From a virus (Duplodnaviria > Heunggongvirae > Uroviricota > Caudoviricetes): a stretch of DNA of 6,807 nucleotides. Positions 2,682 to 6,807 of the stretch are shown here, piece after piece (positions within the stretch are counted from its first letter, which is position 1; each line of letters opens with the position of its first letter). Below the pieces are notes generated by a model. The model searched no databases. It saw only the letters and a program-made list of their open reading frames with translations, and was not told the origin of the DNA. The stretch is taken from the IMG/VR virus record IMGVR_UViG_2698536620_000002, one strand, 5' to 3'. Both the position numbers and the translations under genes were made by a program.

Positions 2682-2716
2682 GGCCGCCTGTGTGGCTTTT
2701 TTTACGGGATTTTTTT
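2682..2716 (+). promoter_or_regulatory. Short hairpin plus two T7 runs immediately upstream of the E start codon; candidate U-rich translational enhancer or attenuator-like element
   Basis: GGCC-GCCTGTGT-GGC (weak 3-4 bp stem) followed by TTTTTTT ACGGGA TTTTTTT ATG. The E gene has only a weak Shine-Dalgarno (GGGA), yet E is the most abundant head protein. Confidence 0.25.
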
Positions 2717-3742
2717 ATGTCGATGTACACAACCGCCCAGCTGCTGGCGGCAAATGAGCAGAAATTTAAGTTTGATCCGCTGTTTCTGCGTCTCTTTTTC
2801 CGTGAGAGCTATCCCTTCACCACGGAGAAAGTCTATCTCTCACAAATTCCGGGACTGGTAAACATGGCGCTGTACGTTTCGCCGATTGTTTCCGGTGAGG
2901 TTATCCGTTCCCGTGGCGGCTCCACCTCTGAATTTACGCCGGGATATGTCAAACCCAAGCATGAGGTGAATCCGCAGATGACCCTGCGTCGCCTGCCGGA
3001 TGAAGATCCGCAGAATCTGGCGGACCCGGCTTACCGCCGCCGTCGCATCATCATGCAGAACATGCGTGACGAAGAGCTGGCCATTGCTCAGGTCGAAGAG
3101 ATGCAGGCAGTTTCTGCCGTGCTCAAGGGCAAATACACCATGACCGGTGAAGCCTTCGATCCGGTTGAGGTGGATATGGGCCGCAGTGCGGCGAACAACA
3201 TCACGCAGTCCGGCGGTACGGAGTGGAGCAAGCGTGACAAGTCCACGTATGACCCGACCGACGATATCGAAGCCTACGCGCTGAACGCCAGCGGTGTGGT
3301 GAATATCATCGTGTTTGACCCGAAAGGCTGGGCGCTGTTCCGTTCCTTCAAAGCCGTCAAGGAGAAGCTGGATACCCGTCGCGGCTCTCATTCCGAGCTG
3401 GAGACAGCGGTAAAAGACCTGGGCAAAGCGGTGTCCTATAAGGGAATGTATGGCGATGTGGCCATCGTCGTGTATTCCGGACAGTACGTGGAAAACGGCG
3501 TCAAAAAGAACTTCCTGCCGGACAACACGATGGTGCTGGGGAACACTCAGGCTCGCGGTCTGCGCACCTATGGCTGCATTCAGGATGCGGACGCACAGCG
3601 CGAAGGCATTAACGCTTCTGCCCGTTACCCGAAAAACTGGGTGACCACCGGCGATCCGGCGCGTGAGTTCACCATGATTCAGTCAGCACCGCTGATGCTG
3701 CTGGCTGATCCTGATGAGTTCGTGTCCGTTCAACTGGCGTAA
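2717..3742 (+). CDS. E: Major capsid protein E (HK97-fold), 341 aa
   Basis: The translation MSMYTTAQLLAANEQKFKFDPLFLRLFFRESYPF...DEFVSVQLA matches lambda gpE. Length is 1026 nt = 341 codons plus stop. The D-E spacer is 55 nt, as in lambda. The ORF-track start at 2690 is an upstream in-frame extension. Confidence 0.95.
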   Translation: MSMYTTAQLLAANEQKFKFDPLFLRLFFRESYPFTTEKVYLSQIPGLVNMALYVSPIVSGEVIRSRGGSTSEFTPGYVKPKHEVNPQMTLRRLPDEDPQNLADPAYRRRRIIMQNMRDEELAIAQVEEMQAVSAVLKGKYTMTGEAFDPVEVDMGRSAANNITQSGGTEWSKRDKSTYDPTDDIEAYALNASGVVNIIVFDPKGWALFRSFKAVKEKLDTRRGSHSELETAVKDLGKAVSYKGMYGDVAIVVYSGQYVENGVKKNFLPDNTMVLGNTQARGLRTYGCIQDADAQREGINASARYPKNWVTTGDPAREFTMIQSAPLMLLADPDEFVSVQLA

Positions 3743-3744
3743 TC

Positions 3745-3771
3745 ATGGCCCTTCGGGGCCATTTTCTCTCT
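3745..3771 (+). terminator. Perfect 7-bp GC-rich stem-loop with UUCG tetraloop followed by a U/C-rich tract, in the E-FI spacer; candidate RNA-stabilising hairpin or weak intrinsic terminator
   Basis: ATGGCCC (3745-3751), TTCG (3752-3755), GGGCCAT (3756-3762), then TTTTCTCTCT. The arms are perfectly complementary. It lies immediately after the E stop (3740-3742) and before the FI Shine-Dalgarno. Confidence 0.4.
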
Positions 3772-3783
3772 GTGGAGGAGTTC

Positions 3784-4182
3784 ATGACGAAAGATGAACT
3801 GATTGCCCGTCTTCAGGAGCTGGGTGAGCAATTGAACCGCGATGTCAGTTTGACGGGAACGAAAGAAGAACTGGCGCTTCGTGTGGCAGAGCTGGAAGAA
3901 GAGCTTGATGACACGGATGAAACTGCCGGTCAGGACACCCCTCTCAGCCGGGAAAATGTGCTGACCGGGCATGAAAATGAGGTGGTATCAGCGCAGCCGG
4001 ATACCGTGATTCAGGATACGGCTGAACTGGTCACGGTCGTGGCACTGGTGACGCTGCATACTGATGCACTTCACGCCACGCGGGATAAACCTGTGGCATT
4101 TGTGCTGCCGGGAACGGCGTTTCGTGTCTCTGCCGGTGTGGCAGCCGAAATGACAGAGCGCGGCCTGGCCAGAATGCAATAA
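3784..4182 (+). CDS. FI: DNA packaging / head assembly protein FI, 132 aa
   Basis: ATG at 3784 is preceded by GGAGGA at 3774-3779. The translation MTKDELIARLQELGEQLNRDVSLTGTKEELALRVAELEEELDD...GLARMQ matches lambda gpFI. The ORF-track start at 3745 runs through the E-FI hairpin and is rejected. Confidence 0.92.
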   Translation: MTKDELIARLQELGEQLNRDVSLTGTKEELALRVAELEEELDDTDETAGQDTPLSRENVLTGHENEVVSAQPDTVIQDTAELVTVVALVTLHTDALHATRDKPVAFVLPGTAFRVSAGVAAEMTERGLARMQ

Positions 4183-4193
4183 CGGGAGGCGCT

Positions 4194-4547
4194 GTGGCTG
4201 ATTTCGATAACCTGTTCGATGCTGCCATTGCCCGCGCCGATGAAACGATACGCGGGTACATGGGAACGTCAGCCACCATGACATCCGGTGAGCAGTCAGG
4301 TGCGGTGATACGTGGTGTTTTTGATGACCCTGAAAATATCAGCTATGCCGGACAGGGCGTGCGCGTTGAAGGCTCCAGCCCGTCCCTGTTTGTCCGGACT
4401 GATGAGGTGCGGCAGCTGCGGCGTGGAGACACGCTGACCATCGGTGAGGAAAATTTCTGGGTAGATCGGGTTTCGCCGGNNNNNNNNNNNNNNNNNNNNN
4501 NNNNNNNNNNNNNNNNNNNNNNNNNNNNNNNNNNNNNNNNNNNNNNN
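4194..4547 (+). CDS. FII: Head-tail joining (head completion) protein FII. Only 4194-4479 (95 codons) is readable; the 3' end is masked by N, and end 4547 is inferred from a 117-aa homologue length
   Basis: GTG at 4194 is preceded by GGGAGG at 4184-4189. The translation MADFDNLFDAAIARADETIRGYMGTSATMTSGEQSGAVIRGVFDDPENISYAGQGVRVEGSSPSLFVRTDEVRQLRRGDTLTIGEENFWVDRVSP matches lambda gpFII residues 1-95. The stop codon is not visible. Confidence 0.85.
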
Positions 4548-4580
4548 NNNNNNNNNNNNNNNNNNNNNNNNNNNNNNNNN

Positions 4581-5159
4581 NNNNNNNNNNNNNNNNNNNN
4601 NNNNNNNNNNNNNNNNNNNNNNNNNNNNNNNNNNNNNNNNNNNNNNNNNNNNNNNNNNNNNNNNNNNNNNNNNNNNNNNNNNNNNNNNNNNNNNNNNNNN
4701 NNNNNNNNNNNNNNNNNNNNNNNNNNNNNNNNNNNNNNNNTGGTAAAGGAAAGGGCCAGGCTGAAAAGGGCCACGGTCAAAAATCCGCAGGCCAGAATCA
4801 AAGTTAACCGGGGGGATTTGCCCGTAATCAAGCTGGGTAATGCGCGGGTTGTCCTGTCCCGCCGCAGGCGTCATAAAAAGGGGCAGCGTTCATCCCTGAA
4901 AGGTGGCGGCAGCGTGCTTGTGGTGGGTAACCGTCGTATTCCCGGCGCGTTTATTCAGCAACTGAAAAACGGCCGGTGGCATGTTATGCAGCGTGTGGCC
5001 GGGAAAAACCGTTACCCCATTGATGTGGTGAAAATCCCGATGGCGGTGCCGCTGACCACGGCGTTTAAACAGAATATTGAACGGATACGGCGTGAACGTC
5101 TTCCGAAAGAGCTGGGCTATGCGCTGCAGCATCAACTGAGAATGGTAATAAAGCGATGA
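4581..5159 (+). CDS. Z: Tail completion protein Z. The 5' end is masked by N; the readable part is 4743-5159 (C-terminal 138 aa), and start 4581 is inferred from a 192-aa homologue length
   Basis: The post-gap translation VKERARLKRATVKNPQARIKVNRGDLPVIKLGNARVVLSRRRR...LGYALQHQLRMVIKR matches the lambda gpZ C-terminus. Stop TGA is at 5157-5159. The single ORF 4194..5159 in the track is an artefact of N-translation joining FII and Z. Confidence 0.85.
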   Translation, partial: XXXXXXXXXXXXXXXXXXXXXXXXXXXXXXXXXXXXXXXXXXXXXXXXXXXXXXVKERARLKRATVKNPQARIKVNRGDLPVIKLGNARVVLSRRRRHKKGQRSSLKGGGSVLVVGNRRIPGAFIQQLKNGRWHVMQRVAGKNRYPIDVVKIPMAVPLTTAFKQNIERIRRERLPKELGYALQHQLRMVIKR

Positions 5160-5551
5160 AACATACTGAACTCCGTGCAGCCGTACTGGATGCACTGGAG
5201 AAGCATGACACCGGGGCGACGCTTTTTGATGGTCGCCCCGCTGTTTTTGATGAGGAAGATTTTCCGGCAATTGCCGTTTATCTCACCGGCGCTGAATACA
5301 CGGGCGAAGAGCTGGACAGCGATACCTGGCAGGCGGAGCTGCATATTGAAGTTTTCCTGCCTGCTCAGGTGCCGGATTCAGAGCTGGATTCGTGGATGGA
5401 GTCCCNNNNNNNNNNNNNNNNNNNNNNNNNNNNNNNNNNNNNNNNNNNNNNNNNNNNNNNNNNNNNNNNNNNNNNNNNNNNNNNNNNNNNNNNNNNNNNN
5501 NNNNNNNNNNNNNNNNNNNNNNNNNNNNNNNNNNNNNNNNNNNNNNNNNNN
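5156..5551 (+). CDS. U: Tail terminator protein U. Readable 5156-5405 (83 codons); the 3' end is masked, and end 5551 is inferred from a 131-aa homologue length
   Basis: ATG at 5156-5158 overlaps the Z stop as ATGA (5156-5159), the classic lambda Z/U coupling. The translation MKHTELRAAVLDALEKHDTGATLFDGRPAVFDEEDFPAIAVYLTGAEYTGEELDSDTWQAELHIEVFLPAQVPDSELDSWMES matches lambda gpU. Confidence 0.88.
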
Positions 5552-5613
5552 NNNNNNNNNNNNNNNNNNNNNNNNNNNNNNNNNNNNNNNNNNNNNNNNN
5601 NNNNNNNNNNNNN

Positions 5614-6354
5614 NNNNNNNNNNNNNNNNNNNNNNNNNNNNNNNNNNNNNNNNNNNNNNNNNNNNNNNNNNNNNNNNNNNNNNNNNNNNNNNNNNNNNNN
5701 NNNNNNNNNNNCGTTGACTGGTCGCGTCTGGCAAAAGTTAAAGACCTGACGCCCGGCGAACTGACCGCTGAGTCCTATGACGACAGCTATCTCGATGATG
5801 AAGATGCAGACTGGACTGCGACCGGGCAGGGGCAGAAATCTGCCGGAGATACCAGCTTCACGCTGGCGTGGATGCCCGGAGAGCAGGGGCAGCAGGCGCT
5901 GCTGGCGTGGTTTAATGAAGGTGATACCCGTGCCTATAAAATCCGCTTCCCGAACGGCACGGTCGATGTGTTCCGTGGCTGGGTCAGCAGTATCGGTAAG
6001 GCGGTGACGGCGAAGGAGGTGATTACCCGCACGGTGAAGGTCACCAATGTGGGACGTCCGTCGATGGCAGAAGATCGCAGCACGGTGACGGCGACGACCG
6101 GCATGACGGTGACACCCGCCAGTGCTTCCGTAGTGAAAGGGCAGAGCACCACGCTGACCGTGGCATTCCAGCCGGATGGCGCAACCGACAAGAGCTTCCG
6201 TGCGGTGTCTGCGGATAAAACAAAAGCCACCGTGTCGGTCAGTGGTATGACCATCACCGTGAAAGGTGTTGCTGCAGGCAAGGTCAACATTCCGGTCGTA
6301 TCTGGTAATGGTGAGTTTGCTGCGGTTGCAGAAATCAACGTCACCGCCAGTTAA
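5614..6354 (+). CDS. V: Major tail tube protein V with C-terminal Ig-like (Big_2-type) domain. The 5' end is masked; readable 5713-6354, and start 5614 is inferred from a 246-aa homologue length
   Basis: The post-gap translation [117 protein letters not shown]...VTAS matches lambda gpV. Stop TAA is at 6352-6354. Confidence 0.9.
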
Positions 6355-6369
6355 TCCGGAGAGTCAGCG

Positions 6370-6792
6370 ATGTTCCTGAAAACCGAATCATTTGAACATA
6401 ACGGTGTGACCGTCACGCTTTCTGAACTGTCAGCCCTGCAGCGTATTGAGCATCTCGACCTGATGAAACGGCAGGCAGAACAGGCGGAGTCAGACAGCAA
6501 CCGGAAGTTTACTGTGGAAGACGCCATCAGAACCGGCGCTTTTGTGGTTGCGATGTCCCTGTGGCATAACCATCCGAAGAAGACGCAGATGCCGTCCATG
6601 AATGAAGCCGTTAAACAGATTGAGCAGGAAGTGCTTACCACCTGGCCCACAGAGGCAATTTCTCATGCTGAAAACGTGGTGTACCGGCTGTCCGGTATGT
6701 ATGAGTTTGTGGTGAATGATGCTCCTGAACAGGCAGAGGACGCCGGGCCTGCAGAGCCTGTTTCTGCGGGAAAGTGTTCGACGGTGAGCTGA
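6370..6792 (+). CDS. G: Tail assembly chaperone G, 140 aa
   Basis: ATG at 6370 is preceded by GGAGAG at 6357-6362 (7 nt spacer). The translation MFLKTESFEHNGVTVTLSELSALQRIEHLDLMKRQAEQAESD...PVSAGKCSTVS matches lambda gpG. Stop TGA is at 6790-6792. Confidence 0.93.
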   Translation: MFLKTESFEHNGVTVTLSELSALQRIEHLDLMKRQAEQAESDSNRKFTVEDAIRTGAFVVAMSLWHNHPKKTQMPSMNEAVKQIEQEVLTTWPTEAISHAENVVYRLSGMYEFVVNDAPEQAEDAGPAEPVSAGKCSTVS

Positions 6793-6807
6793 GTTTTGCC
6801 CTGAAAC
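6370..6807 (+). CDS. T: Tail assembly chaperone G-T fusion made by programmed -1 ribosomal frameshift; 3'-partial, the T-frame portion 6774-6807 runs off the window
   Basis: After a -1 slip on G GGA AAG (6768-6774), the -1 frame reads GTG TTC GAC GGT GAG CTG AGT TTT GCC CTG AAA = VFDGELSFALK. This matches the start of the T-specific part of lambda gpGT as I recall it, and the frame is open to the window end. Confidence 0.8.
6768..6774 (+). promoter_or_regulatory. Slippery heptamer G GGA AAG for the G to G-T -1 programmed ribosomal frameshift
   Basis: The X XXY YYZ motif has GGA and AAG in the G zero frame, lying 16 nt upstream of the G stop. This is the position and sequence of the well-studied lambda G-T frameshift site. 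Confidence 0.85.

Follow-up and report, generated by a model that had tools for sequence, protein, structure and literature searches.

The apparent 55-nt excess at the U/V junction of a lambda-type prophage is almost certainly an artefact of N-run length

A 6807-nt stretch of viral DNA (hereafter the window) poses a question about the junction between two tail genes. A run of 306 N covers the end of the tail terminator gene U and the beginning of the major tail tube gene V, and the distance from the start of U to the end of V exceeds that in phage lambda by 55 nt. Is there additional DNA between these genes, or is the length of the N run simply not a faithful record of the sequence that it replaces? 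The layout of the window is that of any lambda-type prophage late operon, with the genes portal, C, D, E, FI, FII, Z, U, V and G. The features that matter for the question are the visible fragments of U and V and two N runs, the second of which serves here as a control.

4480..4740, no strand: the other N run, 261 nt and spanning FII/Z; the relatives all have 239 nt here
5156..5405, + strand: tail terminator gene U from its start as far as it can be read (codons 1-83); PF06141
5406..5711, no strand: N run of 306 nt; it replaces about 251 nt in all relatives
5712..6354, + strand: readable remainder of V, the gene for the major tail tube protein (codons 34-246, then TAA); PF16461 and PF02368

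What can be read on either side of the 306-nt run is typical of lambda. The earlier note had placed the start of U at 5156 and the end of V at 6354, and both positions are borne out by an ATG at 5156, which overlaps the Z stop (ATGA), and by a TAA at 6352-6354. Both the gene order Z-U-V-G and the overlap of the U start with the Z stop are the same as in lambda, to which the visible parts of U and V are 97.7 % and 96.5 % identical at the DNA level, respectively; at the junction, the window departs from lambda only in that the N run has 306 nt where lambda has 251 nt. The U fragment matches PF06141 (Phage_tail_U) with an E-value of 7.7e-38 and 130.1 bits against a cut-off of 25, its residues 1-82 aligning to profile positions 1-83 of 130, as expected of a lambda gpU. 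Similarly, the visible part of V comprises the tube domain and the C-terminal Ig-like domain, and both profile matches exceed their cut-offs, as expected of a lambda gpV: PF16461 (Phage_TTP_12) at an E-value of 5e-61 and 205 bits (cut-off 26.1), covering profile positions 18-135 of 135, and PF02368 (Big_2) at 1.1e-19 and 70.5 bits (cut-off 22.8).

The arithmetic behind the apparent excess is sound. In lambda (NC_001416), U occupies 8552-8947 (131 aa, 396 nt) and V 8955-9695 (246 aa, 741 nt) with a 7-nt spacer between them, so that the lengths given in the earlier note were correct. From the start of U to the end of V, lambda has 1144 nt and the window 1199 nt, which accounts for the difference of 55 nt. 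On lambda lengths, U would run to 5551 in the window and V from 5614, with 62 nt in between, and the frame offset between U and V is 1 mod 3 in lambda versus 2 mod 3 in the window. However, all 55 extra nt fall inside the N run, and there is no readable base among them; when readable extra DNA of the kind that an intergenic insertion or a moron would leave was sought between U and V in the window, none was found, the excess consisting of N only. The claim of a longer junction thus stands as a count of positions but not as a statement about sequence. Likewise, the changed frame relation of U and V is real as a matter of offsets but cannot be taken as a sign of a net insertion, since the excess is made of N. 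In some records (phage PhiR70_1, 5789-6559; J02459.1), V is annotated as a protein of 256 aa with a start 30 nt upstream, inside the 3' end of U; this departure from the 246 aa of the RefSeq lambda record is an annotation discrepancy and not a difference in sequence.

The nearest relatives of the window provide the most direct view of what is likely to lie beneath the N run. Ten contigs or assemblies (L055, L100, L110 and L136-L142) are 100 % identical to the window over both 4741-5405 (665 nt) and 5712-6807 (1096 nt), and are 99.78-99.92 % identical to it over all 6240 visible nt (L055, L100 and L110, 99.84-99.92 %; L136-L142, 99.78-99.89 %). L055 is the IMG/VR record UViG_2667527914_000011, and L136-L142, which include CP104423.1, CP061367.1, CP026802.1 and AKNC01000068.1, are seven assemblies among the matches listed for the exact G protein of the window, which has 35 further similar places. 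All ten carry 239 nt and 251 nt at the places where the window has 261 and 306 N. Over 6.2 kb, no more than 3-14 SNPs separate them from the window, yet they possess neither insertion, and such near-identical lambda-type prophages (L055, L136-L142) are also free of N runs, unlike the window. The earlier note had called for the U stop, the V Shine-Dalgarno and start and anything additional between them to be looked for; a lambda-like U stop, the 7-nt spacer GGACGCT and the V start are present in 10/10 of the nearest relatives, which share lambda's junction exactly (...GAAATGTGAGGACGCTATGCCT...). The same holds for ten assemblies selected for the window's exact capsid protein (U of 131 aa, 7-nt spacer and V of 246 aa in every one), and the look-ups with the window's exact E and G proteins, which returned thousands of blocks, yielded 17 junctions in all, every one of them lambda-like. 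With flanks that are 100 % identical, the lengths of the N runs are thus at odds with those of near-identical relatives (306 versus 251 nt; 261 versus 239 nt), which indicates that the runs are not length-faithful. Among the explanations put forward in the earlier note, a masking artefact is therefore the one favoured by the junctions of about 251 nt in the relatives, including the ten with both flanks identical. In four of these assemblies, L137, L138, L140 and L141 (99.8-99.9 % identical), portal, C, Z and/or tape-measure genes are split in some cases, reflecting either prophage decay or indel errors in the assemblies.

Filling both N runs with the sequence of L055/L100 gave a reconstruction of 6730 nt in which U is intact (131 aa, 5 substitutions relative to lambda), V is intact (246 aa, 6 substitutions) and the spacer GGACGCT is identical to that of lambda; the reconstructed junction reads CTATGAAATGTGAGGACGCTATGCCTGTA. 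The masked stretch would thus be expected to contain 251 nt, of which 146 nt belong to U (48 codons and the stop), 7 nt to the spacer and 98 nt to V (32 codons and 2 nt), and the Pfam profile positions absent from the visible fragments (U 84-130 and V 1-17) agree with this content. Nor did anything stand out at the junction of this unmasked equivalent when it was searched for regulatory features: Rfam returned no hit near the junction (two sub-threshold hits at E ≤ 1 lie elsewhere), a promoter and terminator scan gave no promoter-like site and placed none of three terminator-like sites there, and RNA folding was unremarkable (z = -1.07).

We also asked how the length of this stretch varies across much larger collections. 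A scan of IMG/VR with the exact 20-nt flanks of the N run and lambda-like spacing returned at least 120 contigs; in the 120 matches listed, the fill was 251 nt in 118, 250 nt in one and 252 nt in one. At the 66 loci whose 60-nt flanks are identical, the fill is exactly 251 nt without exception and comes in 35 distinct substitution alleles; the U/V stretch varies in sequence, not in length. No contig with exact flanks at a spacing of 291-321 nt was found in the viral, genome or metagenome contig collections, and spacings of 267-290 and 322-352 nt were likewise absent from the viral contigs (IMG/VR). Among phages and complete E. coli genomes, the best 60 rows are all 55 nt shorter than the window, and 13 of the 15 whole-window rows listed span 6730 nt, that is, 6807 - 77 (the remaining two carry an IS66-family element, and their span is not informative). 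Lambda spacing was seen in 52/52 two-piece rows drawn evenly from 3989 E. coli records and in 42/42 phage rows down to 79 % identity. In more distant lineages, measured over an interval wider than the mask, the difference was 0 nt for N15, +3 nt for Gifsy-1 and +9 to +10 nt for Ayreon, cdtI and mEp460; the largest length variation is thus about +10 nt and occurs in lineages at 68-70 % identity. The earlier note had raised the possibility that the junction is a hotspot for insertions. A length of 251 ±1 nt in the 120 listed IMG/VR contigs, together with the uniform spacing of the 52 E. coli and 42 phage rows, speaks against this, and the reading of the excess as an insertion or moron remnant finds no support in any collection scanned, none of which contained a longer-spaced allele. 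The two IMG/VR contigs that deviate (L056 and L082) have 1-nt indels at fill positions 216-220, around V codons 21-23, and carry either frameshifted V pseudogenes or sequencing errors. One E. coli record, NZ_CP189959.1 1921456-1921761 (H128), is 100 % identical over 306 nt to the Z-end/U side and has no match on the V side, so that its prophage probably has a mosaic breakpoint from recombination at the end of U or immediately beyond it.

The second N run provides an internal control for these comparisons. Its excess is 22 nt (261 versus 239 nt), and blastn alignments of the window with an E. coli prophage (L001), phage PhiR70_1 (L002) and lambda (L003) gave gaps of 239 and 251 nt in all three. 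A search for contigs with a spacing of 246-276 nt at the exact flanks of this run returned none. Since both N runs are too long, the excess is a property of the N runs of the window and not of the U/V junction in particular. The lengths of the two runs are both multiples of 9 (261 = 9×29; 306 = 9×34), but they share no common grid and lie in no gene's frame, and the coincidence is probably due to chance.

Taken together, the comparisons indicate that the 55 extra bases of the window are almost certainly an artefact of N-run length. With high confidence, we view the window as an ordinary lambda-type late operon in which two stretches have been replaced by N runs whose lengths are not faithful, so that the additional 55 nt and the altered frame relation of U and V arise because the length of the run is off rather than from any biological change. 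In all likelihood, the normal 251-nt lambda sequence lies under 5406-5711. The hidden part of U would consist of its C-terminal 48 codons and a TGA stop, the spacer would be GGACGCT, with a V Shine-Dalgarno sequence, GAGGA, spanning the U stop, and the hidden part of V would comprise its first 33 codons. The most likely cause is a pair of scaffold gaps sized by an assembler's estimate. Gaps of this kind are favoured because there are two runs in error (by +22 and +55 nt), because a 665-nt island of sequence lies between them and because the region is repeated in E. coli, where a genome carries a median of 2 lambdoid copies and at most 10. Repeats of this kind break short-read assemblies, and scaffold gaps interrupt normal sequence with N runs whose lengths are off by tens of bases, just as in the window. 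Alternatively, a mask imposed with an altered length would give the same picture. From sequence comparison, we infer that the window's own junction is probably lambda-like and that its N runs probably represent assembly gaps. Several observations run counter to an artefact of length: N runs placed as an in-place hard mask would have faithful lengths, and N gaps are uncommon in IMG/VR, none being present in the 123 loci checked, 120 of which were IMG/VR contigs. A separate look for the signature that an assembler's k-mers would leave, namely a known allele identical to the window inside both gaps and with its nearest SNPs equidistant from all four gap edges, found none and speaks neither for nor against assembly gaps.

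The readings that invoke real extra sequence are improbable even when all of them are taken together, and a real insertion at U/V is, by itself, unlikely. In its most explicit form, which we consider very unlikely, an insertion of about 55 nt (a small repeat, hairpin, tandem duplication or moron remnant) would sit in the U-V spacer and a separate one of about 22 nt at FII-Z, with the mask covering both by chance or by aim. Such insertions would account for N runs that exceed the homologous sequence by 55 and 22 nt; each run lies across the boundary of two genes, a place at which additional DNA would be tolerated, and neither number is a multiple of 3, as would fit non-coding insertions. However, the more than 250 junctions examined and the scans of three collections contained no such allele, and both insertions are missing from relatives only 3-14 SNPs away in 6.2 kb. 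It would also be a remarkable coincidence for two insertions of independent origin to lie inside the masked 8 % of the window, unless the mask had been placed to cover them. If they were nonetheless real, these small non-coding insertions of about 55 nt at U/V and about 22 nt at FII/Z would constitute a class of short elements, not described so far, that sit between the genes of lambda-type tail operons and are hidden here by the masks, a prospect to which we assign a very low probability.

Two further possibilities appear to us even more remote. One is that a different lambdoid lineage contributed the masked stretch as a mosaic patch in which the C-terminus of U and the N-terminus of V are longer and the spacer differs. 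Lambdoid tail genes are mosaic, and the E. coli record that matches the U side only (at 100 %) points to a breakpoint near the junction. Yet divergent lineages have nearly the same length here (no difference in the rows at 79-89 % identity or in N15, and at most +9 to +10 nt), with none near +55, and on both sides the window matches L055-type prophages at 100 % as far as the edge of the mask. The other, which we regard as equally improbable, is that the prophage is decaying and that U and/or V has been disrupted by a duplication or frameshifting insertion, the extra bases being the mark of a pseudogene. The near-identical prophages with split portal, C, Z and H genes in some assemblies and the 1-nt indels in the 5' region of V in L056 and L082 would be in keeping with decay, but indels in the U/V stretch amount to only 1 nt, no 55-nt event was seen, and the coincidence of two events within the masked 8 % applies to this possibility as well.

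The longer U/V junction of the window is therefore almost certainly not a real feature, and an ordinary lambda-type junction most likely lies under an N run of unreliable length. The case calls for caution in that the lengths of N runs should not serve as evidence for insertions or frame changes. Had an insertion been real, the closely spaced and probably translationally coupled genes for the tail terminator and the tail tube would be separated, and the ratio of their expression could change; nothing supports such a separation.

The wider set of homologous late operons offered several additional observations. Phage PhiR70_1 (2690-4018) carries an IS4 element between E and FI, and an IS66-family element is present in the homologous operon of two pig E. 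coli strains (NZ_CP149565.1 and NZ_CP149553.1). A record named 'Campylobacter phage CJLB-4' (MW057783.1, 8415-9260; C. jejuni host, 48,361 bp) aligned at near-lambda coordinates and equalled the lambda records in identity and score; it appears to be either misnamed lambda DNA or a contaminant. Finally, the heptamer GGGAAAG is visible and intact at 6768-6774 of the window, near the end of G (ORF 6370-6792), and we take it to be the slippery site at which lambda produces G-T by a programmed -1 frameshift.
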